A stretch of 60,488 nt of DNA, filler included. It is 9 parts of 9 records of this genome, joined end to end, with 100 filler letters (N's around TTAATTAATTAA, not from the genome) between each part and the next. Parts side by side here need not be neighbours in the genome. Positions count along the whole stretch, not along the records: positions 1 to 8,844 come from SRR31147125_91904; 8 more parts are not named here. The stretch is one strand, 5' to 3'. The position numbers were made by a program, and so were the translations under genes. The notes beneath the pieces are model-generated. The model saw only the letters and a list, made by a program, of their open reading frames with translations, searched no databases and was not told the origin of the DNA. Position 1 is the stretch's first letter, and each line of letters begins with the position of its first letter. Shown here piece after piece: positions 1 through 54,946 of the stretch.

Positions 1-140
1 CAGGGCAAGGCCCCCAGAGATCTTGTCTGTGGAATGTATTTGCCAATAAAAATGGCATGTCTGTCAATTTTGTTGGCTTCATGCAGGGCATTGCCGCCCA
101 TTTGGGCTTAAATATCCCGGGATTTATCGGTTTAAAGATC

Positions 141-156
141 TGGCATAATAATTGAA
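141..156 (+). promoter_or_regulatory. Possible sigma-54 (-24/-12) promoter
   Basis: TGGCATAATAATTGAA matches TGGCAC-N5-TTGC except GA for GC at -12; about 210 nt upstream of the first CDS. Confidence 0.35.
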
Positions 157-369
157 TAAGGTTGTGGGGTGAACAGCAAGGCCAGGTCCTTGCCAAGGAT
201 TTTTTAAAATATTGTGAAACCAGGGTTCAAAATGGTCAGAACCATTGCTTATTGTGTGAAAGTTTACTATAGCTAAAAGCGAAAGTTCTGATTCTACTAA
301 CAGCCTTGTCGCATACTAATAAAGAGGTATGATTCTCTTGATAGTTGAACCCAAAAACGCCCAGGGAAA

Positions 370-1524
370 ATGCTTATGAAAATAAAGGTCTGTCTGATCG
401 TCTTGACCGCCTTGGCCCTGATGCCCGTTCCCCGGTCTTTTTCAGGGACTAACCAGGATCTTCCTAAAAAAATACTGGCGATTCAGCACCAGGCCTTTGC
501 CCCTTACGAACGCTCTTTTCAAGGGTTTAAAAATGGGCTTGAAAACAGTGATTACTCAGCAAATATAGAGGTGGAGCGCTTTAATGCGAAAAATGATCTT
601 GAGGTACTTGAGGCCAAGTTCCTTGAAATAAGACAGGGAAAAGGTCCGGATTTGATTTTCACCGTAGGGACCCGGGCCACCCGGATGGCCATGGAGATGA
701 TCCATGATATCCCTATTGTTTTCACCGATCTGGGGGCACCCGAATATTCCGGTATAATTAAGGACTGGAAGAGTTCAGGCGCCAATCTTACCGGTGTGGA
801 GACCCCAAAATACCTTGGCAAGGGAATTGATCTGCTCCACCAGCTGATCCCCTTTAAAAGAATCGGCCTGATCTATCTTAAGGGGTCTCCCAGCCATGAG
901 GGTGCTGTGACCCAGATGACGTTGATTTCAAAAAATCTGGGAACAAGTTTCGTCTACGACGGGTTTTCCTTGACCGGCGCTGACGGCCAAAATTTATCCG
1001 ACCAACGAATTCGGGAATTGATCGCGGAAAAGCTTGGGCACCTGCTTCCCCGTGTTGACGTATTTTTTGTTCAGCCGTCTAAAACCTTTTTTGACCATTT
1101 TGATCTGTTTTTAAAGGGATTTAAAGAGCATAAGGTGCTGAGTGCAGGCGACCCCATCTATATAAAGCGGGGCATTGTTCTGGGCTTGGATCGAAGTAAA
1201 TTTGAGTTTGGCACCCAATGCGCCGACTATGCAATAAAGATTTTTAGGGGAACGCCTCCGGCCCAACTTCCCATGGATGTGGGGCAGCATTTTACCATCT
1301 CCTTTAACCTTAAAGCCGCTGCTTTTGTGGGCTTTAGACCGCCCATGGATCTTCTGGCGGCTGCAGATGCCATTTACCAGGATTTTGAGGGCATAAAAAT
1401 CAGTGACAATAGTGTGGATCTTCTGGATGAGTTCCAGCCTAAACTGAGGGTGGTGTCAGGGGCTCGGCCTGGGCAGGAGGAATGGGCAAAGGACAGCAAG
1501 TATTTCACCATCCTTGCCGAATGA
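370..1524 (+). CDS. ABC transporter substrate-binding protein (ABC_sub_bind-like, periplasmic binding protein fold)
   Basis: Signal peptide; family motifs PDLIFTVGTRA, IPIVFT, GANLTGVE, G..CADYAIKIFRGTPPAQLPM, FNLKAA. Confidence 0.8.
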   Translation: MLMKIKVCLIVLTALALMPVPRSFSGTNQDLPKKILAIQHQAFAPYERSFQGFKNGLENSDYSANIEVERFNAKNDLEVLEAKFLEIRQGKGPDLIFTVGTRATRMAMEMIHDIPIVFTDLGAPEYSGIIKDWKSSGANLTGVETPKYLGKGIDLLHQLIPFKRIGLIYLKGSPSHEGAVTQMTLISKNLGTSFVYDGFSLTGADGQNLSDQRIRELIAEKLGHLLPRVDVFFVQPSKTFFDHFDLFLKGFKEHKVLSAGDPIYIKRGIVLGLDRSKFEFGTQCADYAIKIFRGTPPAQLPMDVGQHFTISFNLKAAAFVGFRPPMDLLAAADAIYQDFEGIKISDNSVDLLDEFQPKLRVVSGARPGQEEWAKDSKYFTILAE

Positions 1525-1619
1525 TCCCATGGGACGTTTAAGTTGGTGTAACCATAATTTTTAACCAAAGTGGTTTCCGGTTGAGATACTCGGTAATCCT
1601 GCCGATAAGAAGGAATTCG

Positions 1620-2156
1620 ATGAGCTTGGGTTTTTATTTGAAAACGAACAGCAAAAAAGTGGCAGCCGTGTTGGCGGTCGCCATTATTTTACTTGTTCTT
1701 ATGAATCCCTTTAAAAAGGACAACAGCGCCTGGGATTTCTACGAGCAGATGGTGGCGGGATATGCAAAGATTAAAGGGGTTGAATTGTCAGAACTCGGGG
1801 ATGAACTCACGGTGGCGGTAGAAGGTAGAAAGGTCTGTTATGCCAATTTTTCCAATCTGTCCTCCCGCCTGAGCATATGCAGAAAGCAATATTTGTCAGA
1901 TATCCTTGGTCTTGCGCGTCAACATATCAAGTCCGCCCCCAGCCAGGGGAAATTTATGCTTTGCATTCGCGAATGCCCTCTGGCGTATTCCATGTGTCGG
2001 GGGACAAAGGAAAGCCCGGTGGATGCCAATGGGGAATGCACCGTGGAAGAGGTTCAATGTATTGAATCCTGTCTGGATATTTATTGGCGCGGAACCGACA
2101 ATTTCACCCCTAAACAAGTTATCTCCAGAATGCCTTCTAAAAGGTCTTATCAATGA
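1620..2156 (+). CDS. Hypothetical membrane-anchored Cys-rich exported protein
   Basis: ATG at 1620 after AAGAAGGA RBS; N-terminal hydrophobic helix; 8 Cys; stop overlaps next start (ATGA). Confidence 0.7.
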   Translation: MSLGFYLKTNSKKVAAVLAVAIILLVLMNPFKKDNSAWDFYEQMVAGYAKIKGVELSELGDELTVAVEGRKVCYANFSNLSSRLSICRKQYLSDILGLARQHIKSAPSQGKFMLCIRECPLAYSMCRGTKESPVDANGECTVEEVQCIESCLDIYWRGTDNFTPKQVISRMPSKRSYQ

Positions 2157-3228
2157 AGATTAAGCAATTCGTCAAAAATAATGCTGGCCTGATCATCACC
2201 GCTCTTTTGATTCTATTATGCCTTGTGCTTTTCTTTTGGGATATGATTTTTATCACCATTTATCCCGGACATGCCGGGGTGCTTTTCAAGCGGGTCTTCC
2301 AGCGGGGGACCGTGGTTGACAAGTCCTTTCCCGAGGGGCTGAATATTGTCTGGCCCTGGGATGAAATGTATATCTATAATGTAAGGATCCAGGAAAAAAA
2401 GCAGGTGGTCAACGTCTTGAGCCAGAATGGGTTGACCATACAGGTCAATGTGTCTGTCCGCTATTATCTTGACCAGGCCAGGCTCCCAAGGCTTCACCAG
2501 ATGGTCGGCCCGGATTACGAGCGAAAGATTATCACACCCTCGACCATTTCCTCGGTAAGAGAAGTGGTGGGCGAATATCTTCCCGAGCAGCTTTACACCA
2601 CTGAGCGGTACCTGATTCAGGATAAGCTTCTCATCGAAGTGATTGAGGAGACCGGACGCATTCCCATTATCTATGATGCCCTGATTGTGGAAAATATTAA
2701 ATTGCCGGAACTGATCAACAGGGCCATTGAGGCCAAGTTAAACCAGCAGCAGCAATTTTTGGAGTACCAGTACAAGATTCAGCAGGCCGAAGCCGAGGTG
2801 ATCCGCAAAAAGAATGAAGCCATCGGCATTCGCCAATACCAAAATATTGTGTCCGAAAGCCTTTCTCCCGAACTTTTGAGGTGGAAAGGGATTATGGCCA
2901 CCCTTGAACTTGCCAAATCCCCCAACAGCAAAGTTATTGTTGTGGGCGGCGGCGAGGGGGGCTGCCCATCATCTTTAATGCAGAAGGGACTTTGAACTCA
3001 TCTGCTGCCCCGGCAGAAGCGCCCCGGGCAAAGACGGCTCCGACAATGGCGTCGGGTTCGGAGTCTGATCGCCAGATCTCCTTATCAGACCGGTTAGGGG
3101 CACAGACTGATCTGTCTTTGCCAGAGGACTCTGAAACCACCCGGGAAAAATCAACGCCTGTCCCAAACGACAACAAGGTTGGCCCGGACCTAAAGAATAA
3201 ACCGGCCGGTTCTGAACCGGTTCAGTGA
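2153..3228 (+). CDS. SPFH/prohibitin (Band 7) family protein, split by a 1-nt frameshift at the G-run 2956-2961
   Basis: TM anchor, GHAGVLFKR, EGLNIVWPWD, coiled coil, LRWKGIMATLELAKSPNSKVIVVG; adding one G restores GGLPIIFN and joins ORF 2992-3228. Confidence 0.85.
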
Positions 3229-3241
3229 ACGGAGGAAAGAT

Positions 3242-3424
3242 ATGTTAGGGGCACTTTTTATCATTGTTATACTCAGCGCGATCATAGCCTTGATGGGGAT
3301 AAACCGGAAGTTGGGATTCTGGGGGTATTTTTTCGCATCAATGCTATTAAGTCCTCTTATCGGGCTTTTTTTAGTACTGGCATCGGACCCGCGGCCACGA
3401 CCTGACGCGGATGACAAGGCCTGA
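3242..3424 (+). CDS. Small 60-aa two-helix membrane protein
   Basis: GGAGG RBS; two hydrophobic segments around GINRKLGFWGYFFAS..LSPLIG. Confidence 0.7.
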   Translation: MLGALFIIVILSAIIALMGINRKLGFWGYFFASMLLSPLIGLFLVLASDPRPRPDADDKA

Positions 3425-3555
3425 CGGCCAAAAAACCCAAAAAGAAGGGGCAACCCTTCACAATGACTATGGTGAATGAGGCAGGGGCAGAATGTATTTT
3501 CCGGGAAGCATCGGTGCTGCCCTAAATATCCAAGAGTAAAAAAAGGAGAATTCTT

Positions 3556-4092
3556 ATGGTAGTAAAAGCCGAAGAAAAAGCCGAAGCAAAAGCTGAGGCC
3601 AAAAAAACTGAAGAAACAGTGGAAGAAAGTGTTGTGGAAATTGACAAGTACACCGAAGGCAAACGGATGGTTAAGAACCGTGTGATTGCTTCTGTGGGAC
3701 TGGGCCTGGTTCCCATGCCCCTGGTTGATGTGATCGGCCTGACCTCCATCCAGCTGGAAATGGTCGCAAGGCTGGCCAAGCTGTATGATGTGCCTTTTCG
3801 CAAAAACGTTGGAAAATCCATTATCGCAAGCTTGGTTGGCGGGGTGCTTCCGGTCTCCATGACCCCGGGGATCTTTTCCCTGCTCAAGGCCATACCCGTG
3901 ATCGGGTGGACTGCAGGGGCCATGACCGTCTCTGTTCTTGGCGGTGCCACGACCTATGCCATTGGCAGGGTTTTTATCCAGCATTTTGAAGCTGGCGGAA
4001 CCCTTCTGGACTTTGATCCTGAAAAAATGAAGGAATACTTTGCCGAGAAGTTCGAAGAAGGCAAAAAGGTGGCTGCCGAAGCCAAGAAGTAA
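3556..4092 (+). CDS. DUF697/YcjF-family membrane-associated protein
   Basis: AAGGAG RBS; GLVPMPLVD...IQLEMV..LAKLYDVPF, KAIPVIG, ATTYAIGRVFIQHFEAGG. Confidence 0.85.
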   Translation: MVVKAEEKAEAKAEAKKTEETVEESVVEIDKYTEGKRMVKNRVIASVGLGLVPMPLVDVIGLTSIQLEMVARLAKLYDVPFRKNVGKSIIASLVGGVLPVSMTPGIFSLLKAIPVIGWTAGAMTVSVLGGATTYAIGRVFIQHFEAGGTLLDFDPEKMKEYFAEKFEEGKKVAAEAKK

Positions 4093-4113
4093 GCGGTTGC
4101 AGGGCATTATCGG

Positions 4114-4157
4114 GGCGGCTGGCCGGAGCCTGTCATCGGCCAGCCGTCTTCTTTTTA
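4114..4157 (+). terminator. Rho-independent terminator/attenuator after DUF697
   Basis: GGCGGCTGGCCG / CGGCCAGCCGTC stem followed by TTCTTTTT. Confidence 0.65.
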
Positions 4158-4200
4158 AGGCGGCCTAACCCAGGCGGCCTGCTTTTAAGGTGACGCATAA

Positions 4201-5839
4201 ATGAGTTTCCAGACGATTAAACTTCTCATCTCGTTTTTTAGTAAATTTTCCGGGGCGCCAAAGGTGAAAATTGCCCTTTTCAGCCTTATCTCGGGAATCA
4301 CTTATGCCCTGGCCCTGGCGGCTATTAATGGTACGATTCAACACGTTTCCGCCGGGAACGATACCTTGAAAGTTAATCTTCTCATTCTTTTTCTTGCCTC
4401 TTGTCTGATCCATGTGTTTTTCAAAAGGCGCTCCGTAAATATGGGGACAATGGCTGCGGAGAATGTCATACGAAATATTAAAGTGGATATCACAGGAAAA
4501 ATTCGCAACAATGAACTTTCCTTTATCGAAACACTGGGCAAGGGAACCCTTTACACCCGCCTGACCGAGAGCACTGACACCATCTCCCCAGGGGGCCCCT
4601 CCCTTGTTTTTGATTCTGGAGTCTGCATTCTCCCTTGTGGCCCTGTTGTGCTATGTTGCCTATCTTTCGGTTACAGCCCTCGGGATGATTCTCATTGTCG
4701 GTTTCGTGATGTGTTTTTCCTATTCAAAATATGTTGCCTCAGCCACAGAAAAGCTTAATCAGTCCGATGTCAAAGAGGGGCAGCTTTTTGACGCAGTTAA
4801 CGATATCCTGTACGGATTTAAGGAAATTCGACTAAACCATAAAAAAAACAAGGGTCTTTTTGCAGATCTCCAAGCCCTGTCCGATGAAGCAACAACCTGG
4901 AAAAGCCTGGCATCCAAAGCCCTTGATGCCAATATGATTTTAATGATGTCCTCTTATTTTATTATCGTAATGGCTACGATTTTTATTCTGCCGATTCTTG
5001 GGGTGACGGAAAAAGAGACCCTTACCTCTCTTGTCTCTTCCATGCTCTTTCTCTGGGGACCCATTGTCATGATTTTCATTCTTTCCAGGCAGTTTACCAT
5101 GCTTGTGGTGGCTGTGGAGCAGGTGAATGAACTTGATGCGATGTTTGGAGATATTCAGCCTGACTATACCGACGAACCTGCCATGCCGCCGGCATTTGAC
5201 CAGATCCGGTTTAATGGGGTTGAATATTGCTATAAAAGCCAGGACAAGGAGCCCTTATTCAAGGTCGGGCCCATTGATTTTTCTGTCAAAAGGGGGGAGG
5301 TGGTTTTTATCACCGGTGGAAACGGAAGTGGAAAATCCACCCTGATGAAGCTTTTAACCGGGTTGTATTACCCCGAGTCCTCGGGTGGCATTTCTCTGGG
5401 AGACAAGGGCTTGACCCGTGAGACTTATCCGGCCTACAGGGAGTTGTTCTCCACCATTTTTACCGATTTTCATATTTTTGAAAAATTGTACGGCCTCGGG
5501 CACATTGAAGGGGGCAAAGTCAACGAATTGCTTTACCAGATGGAGATTGACCACAAGACAAGCTATGCCAAGGGCAGGTTCACCAATATTCGACTGTCAA
5601 CCGGACAGCGGAAAAGAATTGCCTATATCTCGGCCGCCCTTGAGGAAAAGCCGGTATATGTATTTGATGAGTGGGCTGCGGATCAGGATCCCGAGTTTAG
5701 ACAAAAATTTTATACGGTTTTTCTAAATGATATGCGCGCCATTGGGAAGACGGTGATTGCCGTCTCCCACGATGATCAATATTTCCATACTGCGGACCGG
5801 GTTGTTAAAATGGATGAAGGGAAAATCGTGGCATCATGA
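4201..5839 (+). CDS. Cyclic-peptide export ABC transporter (SyrD/PvdE/YojI family), frameshift near 4586-4589
   Basis: TMD + NBD; GGNGSGKST, LSTGQRKR, DEWAADQDP; removing one C gives ...TISQGAPPLFLILES and fuses ORFs 4201-4758 and 4604-5839. Confidence 0.88.
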
Positions 5840-7455
5840 AAGAGATTCCAGAATTTATAGACCGGCATACCCAGGCACCGAAAAAATCCATCCTTGCCCA
5901 TGCCGCCATTGCAGGCGTTACCTATGCACTGATTCTGAAAACGGTAAATGACTGCATCTCAGGAGAAGAGGTCGCCTCGGACCCCATGCATTTTTTAATG
6001 ATTTTTATGATGGCTGTCTTGCACATCCATTCCAAAAAAATCTATATGAACCTGACCTCTGCTGCCACAGGAGATCTTGTCAGCAATGTGCGAATGGGGA
6101 TACTAGAAAAAATTCGTTTCACCGAATTGCGGTTCATAGAAAATACCGGAAAGAGTGAAATCTTTAACCGGCTGACCGAGGACCCAGGCGTTCTCTTCCG
6201 GACGCTGCCCACCTTGATTATGGCTGGTGAAGGCATTGTCTCCTTTATCTCTATTTTTATTTATATGATGTTTATCTCCTTTAAGGGGGCCTTGCTCACC
6301 CTTGGCCTTCTGGCCGTGGCCGGGGTGGCGTATTCCCTGTCATTTATTCCGGTTAAAAAGAAGATTACCCAGGCAAAAATCAAGGAGGTGGAGCTTCTTG
6401 ACCGGCTCAACGATGTCCTGGCCGGATTCAAGGAAATCAAGATCAATCGGGAAAAAAATGAGGACCTCTACAGGGATTACACGGCTGTGGCAAAAGAGGT
6501 TGAACAACTCAAAAGCCAGGCCATGATAAAGTTCAATGACACCTTTTTATTGATCAATATTTCCTTTTTATGTCTCATCGGCGTGATTGTTTTTCTGCTC
6601 CCCCTGGTGGATGTGATTGAAAGCGACCACGTGGTGGGTCTGGCTTCATCCCTGCTCTTTCTCTGGGGACCCATGATGATGGGCATCAGTGTCATGCCCC
6701 AGGTCCTTCTTGTCTCTGTTGCCATTGGCAATCTTGATAAGCTTGATACCCTCATTGACGAGTTTGAGTTGAATGTTCCCCAAACCGAACCCGCATCCCC
6801 TGAGTTTGAATCCATTGCCCTTAAATCCGTTGAGTTTCACTATCCAGGCGCAAATAAAGACGTTTTTTTTCAAATGGGGCCGGTGGATGTCACCTTTAAA
6901 AAAGGTGAGGTGGTGTATATCATCGGTGGGAACGGCAGCGGCAAATCAACGCTCATGAAGTTGATCACAGGCCTGTATTACCCCAATCAGGGCAGCATCT
7001 GCCTGGACAACCAGGCCTTGTCCCGGGATGATCTGTCTGATTTTCGGGAGCTTTTTTCCACGGTGTTTACCGATTTTTATATATTTAAAAAGCTCTACGG
7101 GTTGGAACAGATCGATGCCGGCAAGGTCAACAGCCTGTTGGACAAAATGGGGCTTGGGAAAAAGACCCGGTATGCAGATGAAAAATTTACCCATACCAGC
7201 CTTTCCACAGGCCAGCGAAAACGCCTGGCCTATATCAGCTGTCTGCTTGAAGACAAGCCGGTTTATGTCTTTGACGAATGGGCAGCAGATCAGGATCCGG
7301 AGTTCAGAAAACGATTCTATACCACCTATATTAACGATATGCGGACCCTGGGCAAAACCGTGGTGGCCGTATCCCATGATGACCGGTATTTTGATACGGC
7401 AGACAGGGTCATAAAAATGGCGGAGGGAAAAATAGTTTCAGATACCCGAACATAA
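5836..7455 (+). CDS. Second cyclic-peptide export ABC transporter (SyrD/PvdE/YojI family)
   Basis: GGNGSGKST, LSTGQRKR, DEWAADQDPEFR, VSHDD; paralogous to the upstream gene; ATGA overlap. Confidence 0.92.
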   Translation: MKEIPEFIDRHTQAPKKSILAHAAIAGVTYALILKTVNDCISGEEVASDPMHFLMIFMMAVLHIHSKKIYMNLTSAATGDLVSNVRMGILEKIRFTELRFIENTGKSEIFNRLTEDPGVLFRTLPTLIMAGEGIVSFISIFIYMMFISFKGALLTLGLLAVAGVAYSLSFIPVKKKITQAKIKEVELLDRLNDVLAGFKEIKINREKNEDLYRDYTAVAKEVEQLKSQAMIKFNDTFLLINISFLCLIGVIVFLLPLVDVIESDHVVGLASSLLFLWGPMMMGISVMPQVLLVSVAIGNLDKLDTLIDEFELNVPQTEPASPEFESIALKSVEFHYPGANKDVFFQMGPVDVTFKKGEVVYIIGGNGSGKSTLMKLITGLYYPNQGSICLDNQALSRDDLSDFRELFSTVFTDFYIFKKLYGLEQIDAGKVNSLLDKMGLGKKTRYADEKFTHTSLSTGQRKRLAYISCLLEDKPVYVFDEWAADQDPEFRKRFYTTYINDMRTLGKTVVAVSHDDRYFDTADRVIKMAEGKIVSDTRT

Positions 7456-7615
7456 AAATCCGGATAACCCCGGGTTTAGGCGCAGAAACAAGGTGGTTGT
7501 CACGCCCCCTTTTGGGCATGGAATCCCATTGATCCCCCCGCTGTTGCCTCACCTCAGATTACCAGTATTCCGTGAACCCACTTTGAACAATTCAGGAGAA
7601 TAACAGGGAGAAAAA

Positions 7616-8844
7616 ATGTCATCCGAATCCAAATCCAAGAAAACCGACATCGCAATTATCGGTATGGCATGCAGGTTTCCCGGAGCGGACAATTATACTG
7701 CCTTTGGAAAAAATTTAGAAAATGGTATCAACGCCATTAAAGAGGTACCGCCTGAGCGCTGGCAAATGCACAGGCATTACTCTCCGGACCCGGACGCCCC
7801 CAATAAGAGTGTGAGTAAATGGTACGGACTGATTGAGGGGGCAGATCAGTTTGATAACCGGTTTTTCAATATTTCTCCGGCAGAGGCCCGGGCCATGGAT
7901 CCCCAGCAGCGGCTCCTTTTGGAGGAGGTCTGGCATTGCATTGAGGATGCCGGGGTACCCTTGGAAGACCTCCAGAAAAAGACAACAGATGTCTACGTGG
8001 GAACCGCAGACTGGGATTATATCATCCGGTCCCTGGCAGAGGATGTGAATCTTCATACCATGCTGGGAAACCACAGCAGTCTGCTGGCAAACAGGATTTC
8101 CTATGTCATGGGGTTGAGAGGGACCAGCCTGACCATGGATACGGCCTGCTCCTCCTCTTTATTTGCCGCAGATAAAGCCTGGCAGGCCCTTTTATCCTCC
8201 AATGCGGATTATGCTTTGGTGGCCAGCGCCTGTATTCATTCCCACCCCCTCAAGTATATCGGTTTTTCAAAGGGACATATCATCAGCCCCCAGGGTCAGT
8301 GTAAAGCCTTTGACAAGGATGCCGACGGGTTTGTCCTGGGTGATGGTGTCGGGGTGCTGCTTTTGCAGCGGCTTGAGGATGCCCTTAAGGGTAAAAGGCA
8401 TATCCACGGGGTTCTCAAAGGGGTGGCCACCAATCACAGCGGACACGGCAGCACCATTACCACCCCCCAGGTTTCGGCCCAGGCCGAGGTTCTCGCAGCC
8501 GCCTATGACAAGGCCGGCCTGCCCCCTGAGTCAGTCAGCTATATTGAGGCCCACGGAACCGGCACCCTTGTCGGGGACCCCATTGAAGTGGCTGCGCTGA
8601 CCCGGGTGTTCGGGCAGAAGGTCGGTAAAAACCAACGCTGCTACCTTGGGTCTGCCAAGACCAACATCGGTCATACCGGCGGGACTGCAGCCATGGCCGG
8701 GATTATCAAGGTCCTGACCATGATGCAATCCAAAAAAATGGTGCCCAGTCTCCACTTTAACACCCCCAATCCTGTGATTGACTTTAAGGCATCCCCCTTT
8801 AAAGTGCCCACAAAATTGTCCCCCTGGACCTCGCCGGATAAAAA
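7616..8844 (+). CDS. Type I polyketide synthase, N-terminal ketosynthase domain (truncated by contig end)
   Basis: DIAIIGMACRFPGA, MDPQQRLLLE, DTACSSS, EAHGTGT..GDPIE, KTNIGH: intact Cys-His-His triad. Confidence 0.95.
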
Positions 8845-8944
8845 NNNNNNNNNNNNNNNNNNNNNNNNNNNNNNNNNNNNNNNNNNNNTTAATTAATTAA
8901 NNNNNNNNNNNNNNNNNNNNNNNNNNNNNNNNNNNNNNNNNNNN
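8845..8944. other. Artificial contig linker (N-run with TTAATTAATTAA); identical linkers at 15875-15974, 22203-22302, 28585-28684, 35679-35778, 42091-42190, 47915-48014, 54644-54743
   Basis: 100-nt spacers with stops in all six frames; composition and gene content change abruptly across each. Confidence 0.98.
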
Positions 8945-9821: not shown

Positions 9822-10225
9822 TCTCTCACCTCCTTCATCAGTTCATTAACATCTACAATTGTCGATTTTCCTTGGTCGACAATGTTTTTACAAAGTTCTT
9901 CTACTGTGGAAAACTCACGAACACTTAAGATTTCAAGAAGTGTCGGTAAATTTACGCCAGCAATATGTTGAAACTCTATCTCTGCCATTGCTGCAGCTGT
10001 GACATTAAATGGGCTACCAGACACCATATCTGTTAAAACCAGCACATCTAAATTTTCTTTTGCTTTAGCAATAGCGTTATATACTTGCTCTCTCAACATA
10101 TCAACATCTTCTCCTGGATGTAGTCCAAATGTTGTGATATGATCCTGCTCACCTATAATCATCTCTGCGCTACCAAGCATTGCTTTTGCATAATCACCAT
10201 GTGATACCATAATAATTTCAAACAT
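9818..10225 (-). CDS. PTS mannose family IIA
   Basis: IIMVSHG, LTDMVSGSPFN, AGVNLP; likely ATG at 10225. Confidence 0.93.
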   Translation of the reverse strand: MFEIIMVSHGDYAKAMLGSAEMIIGEQDHITTFGLHPGEDVDMLREQVYNAIAKAKENLDVLVLTDMVSGSPFNVTAAAMAEIEFQHIAGVNLPTLLEILSVREFSTVEELCKNIVDQGKSTIVDVNELMKEVRE

Positions 10226-10391
10226 ATTTTTATTCCTATCTATTTTTTTGTACGACAAATAAGCGTCTTTGAATCTACGTTTAAATTGTCAATTTTTAAT
10301 TGTTTATGTAAGTGTGTTTAGTTAAAAGATCAACTGCTACAAATTGAAGTTTTTCCTGTTTGTTTTCTTCGCAGTTTCCTTGTTTAATTGT

Positions 10392-10420
10392 AGTATAAAA
10401 GAGTCTTGACCATTTGTCAA
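10392..10420 (-). promoter_or_regulatory. Sigma-70 promoter of the PTS operon
   Basis: TTGACA-17 nt-TATACT on the minus strand. Confidence 0.8.
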
Positions 10421-10421
10421 G

Positions 10422-10455
10422 AAAATTTTCATTTATTTTAATTTATGAAAATTTT
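10422..10455. promoter_or_regulatory. Inverted repeat, candidate RpiR operator
   Basis: AAAATTTTCAT-N12-ATGAAAATTTT directly upstream of the -35. Confidence 0.5.
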
Positions 10456-10482
10456 TTTCTTTTTTTATTATCTGTTATGTTT

Positions 10483-11323
10483 TTAGTTTTTATCCAAGAA
10501 TAATGTTGCTCCACTATTCTCCTTTGATTGCTCATATGTTTCCTTAAAATACTCCATAAATAGCACATCCATTATATAGAGTTGAGACGCTTCAATAGAA
10601 AGAGCTTGCCCCAAAAATAATCTATCTCGGGTATTACAGATTAATGTAACGTCTGATGACTCAGTTAGCGGAGATTTAACAAACCTTGTGATACATATAG
10701 TCTTTGCTTTATTTTTTTGCTATTCGAGCAAACTCAACAGTTTCTTTCGTTGAACCAGAAGCCGAAATAATGATCGCAACGTCATTTTCTGAAAGTAGCG
10801 ATGCGGCAACATATTGCATATGTGTATCATTGTTAATGCTTACTTTAGGGGTAATCCTCATAAATTTGTAGCAACCTATCAACGCAGTATGGTTTGATGT
10901 CCCTACACCAAAGAACATAATCCTATCAGCTTTAATAAGCCATTCAATGGCTTTTTCAATATCATCTTCCTTTAACATATTACCTGTTTCGGTTAAAGCT
11001 TCAATATTCTCAGCTAATATTTTTTTTGTCATTATAGCAACAGAGTCTTGTCTAGACATTATATTTTCATTTGTTTTAGAGTCGTTATCATTTATAGAAG
11101 AACTTTGGGCTAGCTCCATTTTAAAGTCCTGATACCCTTTAAAGCCCAAATCCCTACAAAACCGATAAACTGTAGCGTCAGCGATTTCACAGACTTCAGC
11201 AAGTTCGGTAATTGATTTGTATAACATGGATCTTGGATCATTTAAAATCAAATCAGCTATTTTTTTTTGAGACTTCGTAAAAGTATTGTATTGCAATCTT
11301 ACTTTTGTAAAGATATTTTCCAT
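10483..11323 (-). CDS. MurR/RpiR family regulator (HTH + SIS), frameshift at the A-run 10712-10718
   Basis: SITELAEVCEIADATVYRFCRDLGFKGYQDFK, FGVGTS, ISASGST; removing one A continues KTICITRFVKSPLTESSDVTL to a stop at 10483. Confidence 0.88.
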
Positions 11324-12610: not shown

Positions 12611-13392
12611 AGTCTAATCTCCTTAATTACTCGCATTATATTGTTTGACGCAATATTTTCTTTTTCTTCGTCTGAAATATTCGCCATTAATAATGCCGCT
12701 TTGGCACACCCCATACTATTAGAAGAAAAATCCGTGCCAAAAAGCAACCTCTCACTTCCAAGCTCTTTACAAGCCTTTTCGTATCCTAACACTTCTTGAA
12801 AACCGCCTGTTTCATAATAGACATTTTTATATCTGTGTATCAAGGGATATATATACCTTGAAGACGACCAGCAACCCGTATCACAAATAATGACCGTAAG
12901 TTTAGGAAACTCTCTCAATACGTCATAAATATATTCAAAGCCATTTTGTATTGATAAATATAGTGGCACTTTATAATCTTCCATTGCTTTAAGCTGTTTT
13001 CCCATCGTGACTTCATTCAGTAGATATCTATTTTGAAATGGAAATGCACGAAGAAATCTAATCCCATGCTTCAACATATTTTCAAATAGAATCTCAATAT
13101 TATAAGCCTTATCTGTAATCGAAGGAAGGATTGTCCAAGAGCCGTATAGTCTATCCTTATGATTCTCAAGCTCTTTAATCATTTGTAGGTTTCCATCATC
13201 CGGAGATAGATCATACATAGCCCTACACCAAATAACCGCCTTATCTATACCGTAATCATCCATAAATTCAATCAAATTATCTGAACTTTCAGCACATTTG
13301 GTGTACTCATTCATTGTAAAATGCTCGTGGTTGACAATTGTACGCGAATTTAAGCTTCTTCCTATTTCTGCGTTTGCATCAAAAAATAACAT
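12607..13392 (-). CDS. Amidohydrolase-fold protein with degenerate metal ligands
   Basis: FDANAEIG in place of DxHxH; retains RLLFGTDF and EEKENIASNN. Confidence 0.8.
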   Translation of the reverse strand: MLFFDANAEIGRSLNSRTIVNHEHFTMNEYTKCAESSDNLIEFMDDYGIDKAVIWCRAMYDLSPDDGNLQMIKELENHKDRLYGSWTILPSITDKAYNIEILFENMLKHGIRFLRAFPFQNRYLLNEVTMGKQLKAMEDYKVPLYLSIQNGFEYIYDVLREFPKLTVIICDTGCWSSSRYIYPLIHRYKNVYYETGGFQEVLGYEKACKELGSERLLFGTDFSSNSMGCAKAALLMANISDEEKENIASNNIMRVIKEIRL

Positions 13393-13412
13393 AGTATTAA
13401 GTCCTTATTCTG

Positions 13413-14383
13413 CTATATTGCTCGCGCAATTTTTTTATTTCGAATCAAGTCAAGTACTACTGCTAAAACAAGTACTATGCCAGTTATTACATCTTGCCAA
13501 AAGGTCTGAATATCAAGCATTGTCATACCATTATCTAATGTTCCTAAAAGTAATGCTCCAAACATTGCACCAACAATCGAACCTTTCCCACCTGACAAAC
13601 TAGCGCCACCAAGGATAACAGCCGAAATAACCTTGAATTCAATTCCTGTCCCACTTTGCGGCATTGCAGCACCAATTTGAGAACAATATATCCATGTTGC
13701 TACTCCACATACAAGCCCATTAATTACAAAAAGCATCAATATTGTTTTTTTCACATCAATACCACTTAAAAATGCCGCTTGCTCGCTTCCGCCAATTACA
13801 AAAATTCGACGTCCAAAAGCAAAGTATCTAGCTATAACTGCAAATAAAACAACCATTAATAGCATAATTATTCCCGCATGCGGGATACCAAAGGTATAAC
13901 TACGACCAACCAATTTTAAAACTTTGGATGATGCAATAGACATTGTTTTACCATCAGAAATCAAATATGCAATTCCCCTAAAAATCTGCATTCCTGCCAA
14001 AGTAGTGATAAAAGCATTAACCTTTACGTATGCAATCATTATTCCGTTATATATGCCTGTTAAAGCAGCTACCAACATACTTGCGCTTAGCGCAAACCAA
14101 ATATTACCGCCGCTTTTTAAAATTATACCAATCACAACACCAGAAAGTGCAATAATTGCTCCTATCGATAAATCTATATTCCCAGATATTATAATTAACG
14201 CCATTGTACACGCAAGCACTCCTGTTGTAGATGCATACAATGTTATATTCATAAAATTATTCCATGTAAAAAAATGTTCTGTTGAGAACCCAAAAAAATA
14301 ATCACTATAATATATGCAATAACTAAAGAAAAATAATCTAGTTTCCTAAGTTTTGTAAACGTGTTTTTCATAATACTAATCAT
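13413..14383 (-). CDS. Sugar ABC permease (RbsC-like), frameshift near 14292-14298
   Basis: SGNIDLSIG, FITTLA, FGRRIFVIGG, ISAVILGGASLSGGKG; one extra T joins the upstream ATG at 14383. Confidence 0.88.
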
Positions 14384-15874
14384 GAACAATTCCTCCTATA
14401 GCTGCAGACATTATATTTTTTTGGTTAATCTCATCTTTTGTAAGCGTCGCAATAATTGATCCTTCATGCATAACAATTACATGATCTGACATCGCCATCA
14501 ATTCTGGCATTTCAGATGTTATCATGATGATACTAATTCCTTCTTCTGCAAGTTCATTTAATATCTTATATATTTCTGTTTTCGCACCAACATCAATTCC
14601 TCTAGTTGGTTCACTCATAATTATTATTTGAGGTTTTACCTCAAGCCACTTCGCAAGTACAACTTTCTGTTGATTCCCTCCAGAAAGCGCCCCTACAAGC
14701 GTGTCTTTAGACGGTGTTTTAATAGCTAGGTTTTTAACCCATTTATTAGAAACGAGCTTCTCCAATTTTCTGCTGATGATTTTTTCATCTACGTTTTTCT
14801 CATAGTAAGGCGTCATAATATTCTCTTGAACACTTTGAATCAATACTAACCCTTCGGTTTTTCTATCACTCGGTAAAAAGCTAATGCCATTTGCTATACA
14901 TCGCCTCGGGCTATTAATGCTAACTTTCAGGCCATTAATATAGACATCACCACATGTTTTCTTTACTGCTCCAAACAGTGTTTTACCCAGTTCCAAATGT
15001 CCAGATCCCATCAGTCCATAAACACCTAAGACTTCGCCTTTTCTTAATTCAAAGGAGATATCTCGTACATACTCATTTGTAATATTACAAACTTTCATCC
15101 TAACATCATTAGGCTTGTTTGTTTTCTGAGGATACATATTTTTTATTTCGCGACCAGCCATAAACATGATAAGTTCTTGCGGATTAGTCTCGTTGATTTC
15201 TTTATTTGCAACAAGTTCTCCATCGCGCAATACAATCACTCTATCCGAAATCGAGAAAACCTCATCCATTTTATGAGAAATAAATATTGTAGCCACCCCT
15301 AATTTTTTGAGTTTCTTCACTAATGATAAAAGCGATTCAGTCTCTTGATCGTTAAGTGCTGATGTTGGCTCATCCAATATCAATATCTTTGCATCTTCAT
15401 ACATAGCACGCGCTATTTCAATCTGTTGTTTTTCTGCAACAGAGCATGTTTTTATTTTCTTTTCGGTGTCAATTTTTAAACCAACAGCTTCTAGTGCTAA
15501 TTTCGCTGATTCATTTATTTTTTTCCAAGAAACGGTAATATTTGATGATAGACCGTATTGATTCGAAAATAGGTTTTCAGCTACTGTTAGCTCTGGTATA
15601 AATGTTAGCTCTTGATACACAACACTTACTCCCTTTTTCTTTGCATCAATCGGACTGGTTAACTTTGTTTGCTCTTCGTTTATTCTAATCTCTCCACTAT
15701 CAGGAAACTGTGCTCCAGCAAGTATCTTTATTAAAGTTGATTTGCCAGCTCCATTCTCTCCTACAATAGAAAGCACTTCACCTTGATACAAATCAATAGA
15801 AATACCAGACAAAGCCTTAACGCCTGGAAATTCTTTCGAAATATCTTTTGTTTCTAAAACAACTTTCTTTCCCA
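14376..15874 (-). CDS. Sugar ABC ATP-binding protein (RbsA/MglA type, two NBDs)
   Basis: GENGAGKST, LDEPT, LSGGNQQKV, EPTRGIDVGAK; frame continues to the contig edge (GKKVVLETKDISKEFPGVKAL). Confidence 0.95.
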
Positions 15875-16067
15875 NNNNNNNNNNNNNNNNNNNNNNNNNN
15901 NNNNNNNNNNNNNNNNNNTTAATTAATTAANNNNNNNNNNNNNNNNNNNNNNNNNNNNNNNNNNNNNNNNNNNNAGTTCATGGAGGTTTTGTGTAGTTTT
16001 TATGTAGTTTCTTGTATTTCGTGTGTTGTTACTTGATGAATTTACGATTTCCCATAATATTAAGGTT

Positions 16068-22202: not shown

Positions 22203-22302
22203 NNNNNNNNNNNNNNNNNNNNNNNNNNNNNNNNNNNNNNNNNNNNTTAATTAATTAANNNNNNNNNNNNNNNNNNNNNNNNNNNNNNNNNNNNNNNNNN
22301 NN

Positions 22303-28584: not shown

Positions 28585-28684
28585 NNNNNNNNNNNNNNNN
28601 NNNNNNNNNNNNNNNNNNNNNNNNNNNNTTAATTAATTAANNNNNNNNNNNNNNNNNNNNNNNNNNNNNNNNNNNNNNNNNNNN

Positions 28685-35671: not shown

Positions 35672-35867
35672 ATCCGGCNNNNNNNNNNNNNNNNNNNNNN
35701 NNNNNNNNNNNNNNNNNNNNNNTTAATTAATTAANNNNNNNNNNNNNNNNNNNNNNNNNNNNNNNNNNNNNNNNNNNNCTCCGGTGAATATCTGTCCAGG
35801 TACTTACGCGGGAAATCTTGTGATTTTTCGTGTTTCTCCAGGTCAGGGGCTACTCATATAGCGCTAA

Positions 35868-42090: not shown

Positions 42091-42191
42091 NNNNNNNNNN
42101 NNNNNNNNNNNNNNNNNNNNNNNNNNNNNNNNNNTTAATTAATTAANNNNNNNNNNNNNNNNNNNNNNNNNNNNNNNNNNNNNNNNNNNNG

Positions 42192-47689: not shown

Positions 47690-48014
47690 TATCCTGTTTC
47701 CGATGGCACCCGGAATCAGGATTTTTTTTGCACTATTAAAGGAAGGGGAAGTATCCCCTTAGCTTCAGCCAGGCTTTTCGACGGCCGTTCTCCGGTTCAC
47801 TGGCGCTTCACCGGAGTCATATCCAACAATTTTTCCATTCAAATTATTCACTTAGAACTTTTCCTCAATTTCAAAAATATGATATTTATTATATCACAAA
47901 CCGCTCAAACTCCANNNNNNNNNNNNNNNNNNNNNNNNNNNNNNNNNNNNNNNNNNNNTTAATTAATTAANNNNNNNNNNNNNNNNNNNNNNNNNNNNNN
48001 NNNNNNNNNNNNNN

Positions 48015-54643: not shown

Positions 54644-54946
54644 NNNNNNNNNNNNNNNNNNNNNNNNNNNNNNNNNNNNNNNNNNNNTTAATTAATTAAN
54701 NNNNNNNNNNNNNNNNNNNNNNNNNNNNNNNNNNNNNNNNNNNAAAAGATGAAAGTTATCTGCGATTTACGCAAACGTTCATATAAATGCATTATGAAAA
54801 AAATCCTATTGTTAGGCGCTTAAAAGTGATTTTCAAATAGGATAAAGATTGATTGATTTTGATAAGAAAATTTTTTATCCTAATCAAAACTTTTTGATTG
54901 ACAAGTTTTGCTTCTTTTATTATTGAATCAATCTACAGATGAAATA

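Follow-up and report, generated by a model that had tools for sequence, protein, structure and literature searches.

The window analysed in this work, a stretch of 60,488 bases, comprises nine contigs of 5.7–8.8 kb each that are joined by N44-TTAATTAATTAA-N44 linkers (the first is given in Table 1; the others lie at 15875–15974, 22203–22302, 28585–28684, 35679–35778, 42091–42190, 47915–48014 and 54644–54743). Contig 1 (positions 1–8844) carries eight co-oriented genes on the + strand from position 370 to the contig end at 8844, as established by open reading frame (ORF) calling and by Pfam and NCBIfam matches. These genes, which take in the whole of contig 1, are the subject of the present report. 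They encode, in order, a substrate-binding protein (SBP), a cysteine-rich exported protein (CysRich), a prohibitin-like SPFH protein, a two-helix membrane miniprotein (TM60), a short DUF697 membrane protein, two ABC half-transporters (ABC 1 and ABC 2) and the ketosynthase (KS) start of a type I polyketide synthase (PKS). An earlier note on this DNA had described such a run, from a binding protein to a KS-first PKS, with ATGA overlaps at 2153–2156 and 5836–5839. All eight genes were found on the + strand where it had placed them, and a sequence check shows both overlaps to be real: the CysRich stop overlaps the SPFH start in the first, and the ABC 1 stop overlaps the ABC 2 start in the second. 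The GC content ranges from 0.35 to 0.53 between the nine contigs, with 0.48 for contig 1, and on this basis the stretch may represent a mixed bin or several organisms. The other contigs need not share an organism with contig 1.

Table 1. Features of contig 1 and, in the last two rows, of related loci in other genomes (L numbers).
Feature	Position	Strand	Remarks
Orphan SBP, PF04392 (ABC_sub_bind)	370..1524	+	Pfam 96.8 bits, cut-off 25.9; N-terminal signal sequence
CysRich, Cys-rich exported or membrane-anchored protein, no known family	1581..2156	+	N-terminal hydrophobic anchor, 8 invariant Cys
Prohibitin-like SPFH/Band 7 protein (PF01145), one N-terminal transmembrane helix	2153..2995	+	81.8 bits, cut-off 23.6, residues 35–215
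Probable SPFH continuation in another frame, low-complexity C-terminal tail	2956..3228	+	after G6 run; weak
TM60, 60-aa two-helix membrane miniprotein	3242..3424	+	two hydrophobic helices; no Pfam family
Short DUF697 (YcjF-family, PF05128) membrane protein	3556..4092	+	51.9 bits, cut-off 27.7
ABC 1, SyrD/PvdE/YojI-type ABC half-transporter	4201..5839	+	two frames as assembled; 47%-identical paralogue of ABC 2
ABC 2, SyrD/PvdE/YojI-type ABC half-transporter, intact	5836..7455	+	cyc_pep_trnsptr TIGR01194, 333.5 bits, cut-off 286.2
N-terminal KS of type I PKS, cut by contig end	7616..8844	+	KS N and C domains from residue 10
Artificial linker N44-TTAATTAATTAA-N44	8845..8944	none	non-biological joint between contigs
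TM60 copies with KCPxCxY tail, among others	L002:10625-10843, L015:4755-4958, L028:10574-10792		
Long Peripla_BP_6 fusions	L041:11453-14170; L065:1806-4847, 12702-15467; L070:13479-15719; L077:3628-6387		

The closest solved relatives of the SPFH protein in a PDB sequence search are prohibitins (prohibitin-2, 8rrh_B, E 1.4e-14), and its homologues in L080 and L083 bear the NCBI name 'prohibitin family protein'. Its single helix (residues 11–29) is preceded by three lysines and followed by none, a bias that recurs among the homologues: lysine and arginine are enriched before the helix in 34 of 40 and show the opposite bias in two, with a mean of 3.05 before versus 1.03 after. The positive-inside rule, a heuristic, predicts a periplasmic location for the SPFH domain. 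HflK/C, and topologically the prohibitins, also have their SPFH domain on that side. The reading frame of the SPFH gene is probably broken within a G6 run (about 2955–2960), as judged from a tblastn search with the L006 protein that follows frame 2 to 2989 and frame 1 from 2956 (E 7.7e-4, a weak match); the tail in the shifted frame, GGLPIIFNAEG, aligns with GGLPVILNLEG of L006. If so, the true stop would be at 3228, 13 nt before the 60-aa gene, the apparent 246-nt gap would be coding, and the corrected spacing between SPFH and the miniprotein would resemble that of L006 and L023.

The gene for ABC 1 is likewise broken as assembled. Its two frames (4201–4758 and 4604–5839) switch at a G5C4 run at about 4591–4599, and the N-terminal part aligns to residues 1–128 of ABC 2 and the C-terminal part to residues 132–535, with 47% identity. 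Because the gene is split, the C-terminal frame alone reaches 271.7 bits against the TIGR01194 cut-off of 286.2. Walker A (GGNGSGKST), Walker B and the H-loop are canonical in both paralogues in the alignment, and the tandem half-transporters probably form a heterodimer. The break in ABC 1 and the probable one in SPFH both fall within homopolymer runs of G or C. An error of sequencing or assembly is as likely a cause as decay, and the homopolymer pattern is typical of error.

The last gene matches PF00109 with 268.7 bits and PF02801 with 129.4 bits, and its best NCBIfam matches are type I PKSs. The motifs DTACSSS, EAHGTGT and KTNIGHT, which we take to be the Cys-His-His active-site motifs of the KS, are all present. 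The ORF leaves the contig about 409 residues in, and its apparent stop at 8896 falls inside the linker; ORFs that touch linkers acquire artefactual stops of this kind. Among the longer proteins found, none exceeds 52% identity to this KS. The majority of its best matches contain KS, acyl carrier protein (ACP) and ECH domains without an acyltransferase (AT; PF00698), and a few are named PksL or PksN. L001 and L006, which share the SBP and CysRich variant of contig 1, also have AT-less PKSs. From these relatives, we infer that the contig 1 PKS is probably of the trans-AT type.

The PF04392 protein at the start of the run has a hydrophobic, signal-like N-terminus, and a homologue occupies the same block of L001. 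No importer permease or ATPase gene was found beside it on contig 1 by Pfam and NCBIfam, the ABC genes there being of exporter type only. The CysRich protein ends in a conserved CLDxYWRG motif (alignment A2), and has seven close homologues of 145–168 aa and 87 representative clusters. In view of the length of the close homologues and of a GAAGGA element upstream, its true start is more likely the ATG at 1620. Its AlphaFold2 (AF2) model is all-helical (pLDDT 72.5); Foldseek found no match for the model in the PDB at E<=1e-3, and a search of the ESM Atlas gave nothing usable. Besides contig 1, the CysRich gene lies immediately 5' of SPFH in four loci (L001, L006, L023 and L056). In contig 1 and its nearest variants, the PF04392 protein and CysRich stand in place of the usual Peripla_BP_6 protein, and the binding proteins across the loci have signal or lipobox-like N-termini.

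The two remaining membrane proteins belong to poorly characterized families. TM60 and its homologues are hairpins of 50–80 aa with the motif NRKxGFWGYFFxSxLLxPxIG...ASD and six invariant positions (alignment A3), and in the ESM Atlas TM60 matches unnamed clusters only. Many homologues from Chlorobiaceae and Desulfuromonadaceae have an additional C-terminal tail with a KCPxCxY motif that the contig 1 copy does not have. The DUF697 protein consists of a charged N-terminal tail and hydrophobic helices around two invariant motifs, GLVPxPxxD and TYAxGxVFxxHFxxGG; a homologue search returned 534 sequences, and alignment A1 contains 21 invariant positions. The AF2 model is all helical (pLDDT 76.9). 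It has no match in the PDB by sequence profile, nor by Foldseek at E<=1e-3. A match of the DUF697 profile to GMP reductase in the PDB (E 0.0038), with the same weak match in NCBIfam, was rejected as being at chance level.

To place the gene set in other genomes, 25 DUF697 homologues were aligned with the contig 1 protein, and one genome per species of bacteria and archaea was scanned. The scan gave 601 relatives, of which the best 80 defined 79 loci, each taken with flanks of up to 10 kb, and gene presence was scored by tblastn with the contig 1 proteins and with reference proteins from the loci. A megasynthase is found in 39 of the 79 loci, SPFH in 36, TM60 in 31, a binding protein in 28, a cyclic-peptide-type ABC exporter in 23, a type II thioesterase (TEII) in 17, a phosphopantetheinyl transferase (PPTase, PPT) in 16 and CysRich in four. 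Independent clustering of all locus ORFs returned the same recurrent families, together with a DUF481 outer-membrane barrel (10/79) and hybrid histidine kinases (11/79). The combination of SPFH, a small membrane protein, DUF697 and an ABC transporter with PKS or nonribosomal peptide synthetase (NRPS) genes, for which the earlier note had proposed a genome search, does recur beside synthases.

At least six gene orders occur across the loci. In L015 the order is DUF697-ABC-SPFH-PBP-TM60-TEII-PPT-DUF481...PKS (PBP, periplasmic binding protein), in Pseudoalteromonas citrea NRPS< DUF697-ABC-SPFH-PBP-TM60-DUF481, in Chlorobiaceae NRPS< f11< SPFH-PBP-DUF697-TM60-PPT, and in L044, L057 and L069 DUF697-TM60-ABC-SPFH-PBP-NRPS/PKS. 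The locus L001 from Syntrophobacteraceae contains the block SBP-CysRich-SPFH-TM60-DUF697 in the order of contig 1, preceded by ABC and with a diverging PKS. The spacing is tightest around SPFH: a binding-protein gene follows it directly in 26 loci at distances from -29 to +23 nt, mostly 3 nt, and an ABC gene directly precedes it in 14 loci (-17 to +83 nt). TM60 follows SPFH in five loci, and both DUF697 and TM60 otherwise lie near the other genes with larger gaps. The gene set reaches at least five named phyla with its order shuffled and with differing synthase types, and the fact that the families stay together despite the shuffling is good evidence of a shared function. Two families without a Pfam match accompany particular versions of the set. 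Family f11 (~430 aa) stands between NRPS and SPFH in the version of Chlorobiaceae and Desulfuromonadaceae (L002:6114-7424 and nine other loci), and f16 (~433 aa; L015:7468-8769) recurs in L015, L053 and L055.

The association with megasynthases was compared between loci with and without SPFH. Where a DUF697 locus has an SPFH gene, NRPS or PKS genes lie within the fetched 10 kb or less in 26 cases out of 36, and any thiotemplate marker (a megasynthase, TEII or PPTase) in 29. The ratio of loci with a megasynthase to loci with none is 26/10 with SPFH versus 13/30 without it (odds ratio 6.0; Fisher test without correction for kinship, p 2.8e-4); in the 30 loci with full 10-kb flanks, a megasynthase is present in 17 of 21 with SPFH versus three of nine without. 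The positive loci bear 12 distinct taxon labels, which cover Thermodesulfobacteriota (four orders), Chlorobiota, Gammaproteobacteria (three families), Ca. Electryoneota, and unclassified 'Deltaproteobacteria' and 'Pseudomonadota', and a Brocadiaceae locus combines the module with TEII and PPTase. The cassette is hence tied to thiotemplate synthases, though not strictly bound to them, and the counts of 26/36 and 17/21 do not fit the notion that it occurs just as often without PKS or NRPS neighbours.

The synthases themselves differ widely. That of P. citrea is a pure NRPS with three A domains and a methyltransferase, and that of Chlorobiaceae an NRPS with the organization A-PCP-C. Mixed assembly lines are encoded in L066 (KS-AT-ACP-aminotransferase-C-A-PCP-C) and in L044 and L057 (PCP-C-A-PCP-KS), a cis-AT PKS in L040 (GNAT-KS-AT-MT-KR-ACP), and FAAL-KS-KR-MT-ACP-KS with a separate AT-AT-ER gene in L006. 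Trans-AT PKSs are represented as well. This variety implies that the module is a portable accessory set that is not bound to one product.

A second collection was covered by a tblastn search of PLSDB with DUF697. Twenty records matched, and four plasmid or chromid loci from cultured Alphaproteobacteria were examined. DUF697, ABC and SPFH genes are present in all four, and three of the four lie beside an NRPS or a probable PKS. Skermanella sp. TT6 has genes for an NRPS, MbtH, a 'prohibitin family protein', a protein with the name 'cyclic peptide export ABC transporter', a hydrolase, a hypothetical protein and DUF697. In Rhodobacteraceae SC52, two genes of 7.2 kb ('SDR family') and 3.9 kb ('PPTase superfamily'), which are a probable PKS with weak PKS matches only, are followed by ABC, prohibitin and DUF697 genes. 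The order on Tistrella mobilis pTM3 is NRPS< ... DUF697-ABC-SPFH, TEII<. A literature search on the didemnin cluster of pTM3, meant to connect L082 with a known product, returned no papers.

From these data, we regard it as highly probable that a functionally linked, synthase-associated module exists. We also favour, with moderate confidence, a more specific reading: contig 1 would be the edge of a polyketide cluster, and the genes in front of the synthase a lineage variant of this widespread module, with a role in export or handling of the product at the cell envelope. The core of the module would comprise a SyrD/PvdE-type ABC exporter, a prohibitin-like SPFH protein, a membrane-tethered periplasmic binding protein (usually Peripla_BP_6; on contig 1 the PF04392 protein, with CysRich as a helical protein rich in disulfides), the two-helix miniprotein and the short DUF697 protein.

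Several points weigh against this reading. The best 80 of 601 relatives form a sample that is biased towards the DUF697 subfamily of contig 1, and Chlorobiaceae, counted as one lineage, account for 13 of the 36 SPFH loci. In a kinship-aware test with eight independent pairs, the megasynthase follows SPFH in five or six, opposes it in none or one and is unchanged in two or three (median p 0.0625), so that the link, once kinship is considered, is only suggestive; the DUF697 tree used is poorly resolved (15 of 87 inner branches supported), and short contigs give false absences. Seven of the 36 SPFH loci have no thiotemplate marker, three of them with full flanks (L065, L070 and L072) and four without (L025, L049, L059 and L077), and 30 of the 79 DUF697 loci have neither SPFH nor a synthase. 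In the PLSDB locus of Azospirillum brasilense, DUF697 ... ABC-SPFH-ABC is found with no synthase within 12 kb. On contig 1 itself, two genes have frame breaks as assembled and the ABC genes do not adjoin the SPFH gene, and the orientation of the SPFH domain is throughout a positive-inside prediction.

Starting from the observed gene content, conservation of the set, megasynthase link and tight spacing, we infer a topology, a physical assembly, a direction of export and a cargo as follows. The ABC exporter, whose family membership is observed and whose role would be the known role of the family, would carry the finished product over the inner membrane. An SPFH oligomer facing the periplasm may gather the exporter together with the tethered binding protein into a single membrane patch or chamber of the periplasm; such an assembly of exporter, SPFH and binding protein is suggested by the coupling of their genes and by analogy to SPFH cages. 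The binding protein, or the SBP with CysRich, would accept the product and hand it outward (in other loci to the DUF481 outer-membrane barrel), or shield the membrane of the producer, and the miniprotein and DUF697 would be inner-membrane subunits. In its most specific form, a periplasmic prohibitin-type SPFH ring would enclose the ABC exporter and the tethered binding protein and thereby form a private secretion chamber that takes in toxic or amphiphilic NRPS and PKS products and protects the producer's membrane from contact with them. We put this forward tentatively, as a reading that is more speculative than probable. If true, this would add a second kind of SPFH cage with a specific client to the FtsH protease cages, and the set would be a portable export device that unrelated biosynthetic clusters have in common across phyla.

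The nearest known systems each resemble a part of the set. The SyrD/PvdE/YojI exporters (TIGR01194) share with ABC 2, which scores above the family cut-off, the fused permease-ATPase half-transporter and the position in or beside thiotemplate clusters; contig 1 differs in having two tandem paralogues, and no described exporter is known to us, or was found in the literature searches, to be accompanied by SPFH, DUF697, a miniprotein of two helices or a binding protein with a tether. The HflK/HflC-FtsH and mitochondrial prohibitin cages are alike in the SPFH domain, the single N-terminal helix and the predicted periplasmic side, with prohibitins as the closest solved structures. Contig 1 differs in having one SPFH gene rather than a pair. 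Across the loci, the conserved neighbours of SPFH are an ABC exporter and a binding protein, and no FtsH-type protease was found among the recurrent neighbour families of the 79 loci. The SPFH-NfeD operons (QmcA-YbbJ, YqiK-YqiJ) also place a small membrane-protein gene after SPFH, as do the five loci with TM60 in this position. In contrast, TM60 is a hairpin of its own motif, no ORF of contig 1 has a Pfam match to NfeD, and the orientation of QmcA is, as we take it, opposite to that predicted for the contig 1 SPFH protein. Finally, the combination of an ABC transporter, a periplasmic binding protein and the DUF481 barrel follows the logic of Mla/Lol-type routes; the families are unrelated and the likeness is an analogy only.

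Two published clusters contain part of the set. The palmerolide (pal) cluster has, by section 3.2.5 and the legend of Fig. 3 in PMC8739492, a SyrD-like ABC gene beside that of a 'Band7 stomatin-like integral membrane' protein, and the NRPS/PKS cluster of Thalassobaculum OXR-137 has a cyclic-peptide ABC gene beside a Band7/prohibitin gene (PMC12016528). Both are single clusters, compared here by description, and the sections of the two papers that describe these genes do not mention DUF697, the miniprotein or the binding protein. Apart from these two incidental mentions, full-text searches, subscription journals excluded, gave no description of the DUF697/SPFH set with NRPS or PKS genes. The statement of the earlier note that no functional description of such a module is known agrees with the literature searched, and the module appears to be undescribed.

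An alternative explanation is self-protection, in which SPFH, DUF697 and the miniprotein stabilize or repair the inner membrane of the producer against its own membrane-active product, as a membrane-stress system would, and the ABC exporter acts by itself. It is established that SPFH proteins organise membranes in a general way. Some synthases hint at lipopeptide-like or amphiphilic products (the FAAL start in L006 and the KS-AT-ACP-aminotransferase-C-A organization in L066), and DUF697 and TM60 are more loosely spaced from the ABC gene than SPFH is. We nevertheless consider self-protection unlikely: it leaves unexplained the tight coupling of SPFH with a periplasmic binding protein in 26 loci and with the ABC exporter in 14, as well as the fusions of binding proteins to SBP_bac_5, OmpA and MscS domains, and the recurrent set contains no conserved gene of a Psp-like protein or a protease.

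The close linkage of the binding protein also suits a role in sensing or re-uptake, where this protein would capture a released metallophore or signal and pass it to an importing exporter-fold ABC transporter or to a kinase; SPFH would arrange the receptor patch. Some ABC transporters of exporter fold import siderophores (YbtPQ, IrtAB), an orphan binding protein shows the tightest linkage of all partners, hybrid histidine kinases recur in 11 of the 79 loci, and the MbtH and PvdE-like genes of L083 would fit a siderophore-type cluster. Yet the TIGR01194 members of known role are exporters, as the family name indicates, the recurrent families include no TonB-dependent receptor, and the kinases mostly do not adjoin the core. 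Such a function is, in our judgement, quite improbable.

The earlier note had proposed a dedicated membrane apparatus that would anchor the megasynthase or else channel or sense its product. The general part of this proposal is supported by a conserved set tied to thiotemplate synthases (26/36, 29/36 and 17/21 in the counts above). The anchoring option, in which SPFH and DUF697 would dock the cytoplasmic PKS or NRPS beside the exporter, draws on the co-occurrence with megasynthases, on the long charged N-terminal tail of DUF697, which is probably cytoplasmic, and on the position of DUF697 directly before the first PKS gene in L003, L021, L022, L040, L042, L043 and L054. It does not find support in the SPFH protein, for which the lysine and arginine bias predicts a domain in the periplasm in 34 of 40 homologues, and whose tightest partners are exported binding proteins. 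The predicted location makes export or handling at the envelope likelier than anchoring of the synthase. In addition, the synthases are too varied for a common docking surface to be likely, and the module is also found with no synthase nearby. Anchoring is accordingly regarded as very doubtful. That the genes of contig 1 are chance neighbours with no joint function, for which one could cite the two frame breaks and a terminator and promoter scan that gave no evidence either way, is highly improbable, since it is already contradicted by the recurrence of the same families in shuffled order in many bacterial families and in the second collection.

An envelope module for export or handling would bear on several questions. 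How large and often membrane-active NRPS and PKS products leave Gram-negative producers without self-harm is poorly understood, and once annotated, the transport genes of biosynthetic clusters usually receive no further attention. If the reading is correct, the five-protein envelope set around the exporter would be a new bacterial client for SPFH/prohibitin biology and the first functional context for DUF697 and for the unnamed miniprotein family. It would also provide a genomic marker for clusters in poorly studied anaerobes, and parts of it may raise export or tolerance in heterologous production. Since the module is carried by cultured bacteria (Pseudoalteromonas citrea DSM 8771, Skermanella sp. 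TT6, Tistrella mobilis and Azospirillum), the idea is directly testable.

The closest DUF697 relatives in the homologue search are 70–85% identical to the contig 1 protein, and the nearest named one, at 72% identity, is from a Desulfobacterales metagenome-assembled genome (MAG). In the DUF697 tree, the contig 1 protein falls in an unresolved group of Thermodesulfobacteriota, beside L001. A Thermodesulfobacteriota-like bacterium is therefore a plausible source of contig 1. The best match among the scanned genomes is only 54% identical, which implies that the source genome or its close kin is absent from the scanned collection. The description of the source as a likely sulfate reducer, made in the earlier note, would rest on these relatives only, and no dsr, apr or sat gene was found in the whole stretch.

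A few further features were noted in the recurrent families. The Peripla_BP_6 protein that is coupled to SPFH forms long fusions, with a family-5 peptide-binding domain (SBP_bac_5), an MscS mechanosensitive channel, or TSP3 repeats and an OmpA peptidoglycan-binding domain as partners, all of which belong to the envelope; L041 and L065 have as many as three copies of it in tandem. Several loci (L040, L077, L061, L038 and L051) have two or three DUF697 paralogues; of the L040 copies at 2742-3293 and 10001-10519, one adjoins the ABC gene and one lies directly before the PKS. DUF697 is also found in other conserved contexts without SPFH or synthase, namely behind a sigma-54 response regulator plus five conserved genes, behind members of family f19 (~520 aa), and beside ParA/MinD-like ATPases (L011, L030, L036; L046, L049, L064; L012, L035, L055, L073).

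Identical DUF697 sequences occur in MAGs of different phylum labels (L044 and L045, 'Deltaproteobacteria' versus Thermodesulfovibrionia; L060 and L062, Peribacteria versus Dependentiae), which points to mis-binning or to very recent transfer. In the tree, the Chlorobiaceae proteins (L002, L008, L009, L013, L017, L024–L029 and L037) nest in a clade with those of Desulfuromonadaceae/Pelobacter (L015, L028, L034 and L053) with an SH-aLRT support of 99. This nesting suggests that the module as a whole has been transferred between the two phyla.

Additional scans of contig 1 yielded little. A 305-aa ORF on the minus strand (3190–4107) was rejected as a gene; it belongs to no family and overlaps both TM60 and DUF697. 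The only match of an Rfam scan was sub-threshold, to the Rhizobiales small RNA Atu_Ti1 (E 0.21; 29.6 bits, where the gathering score is 55); it extends over 4060–4147, across the 3' end of DUF697 and the next spacer, and is probably due to chance. No terminator-like site was detected on the + strand between the genes, and the 16 promoter-like sites, close to the 10.6 ± 3.2 expected from shuffled sequence, are uninformative on separate transcription of the PKS. PADLOC assigned no defence family to the binding protein, CysRich, SPFH, TM60 or DUF697, and gave generic ATPase matches only for ABC 2.

Genes past 8844 (phosphotransferase system (PTS), sugar ABC transporter and others) were rejected as neighbours of the run, as they are located on other contigs. 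Among the genes on those contigs are a truncated PTS IIC gene and genes for ABC importers of sugars and peptides, for FliD, for a flavoenzyme resembling BaiCD and for RsgA. The PTS mannose-family IIC gene of contig 2 (8945–9306, minus strand) is cut at the contig edge and encodes 137 aa that cover profile positions 1–116 of 233. It is preceded by IIB and IIA genes and an RpiR regulator, and contig 2, with 35% GC, is strongly unlike contig 1.

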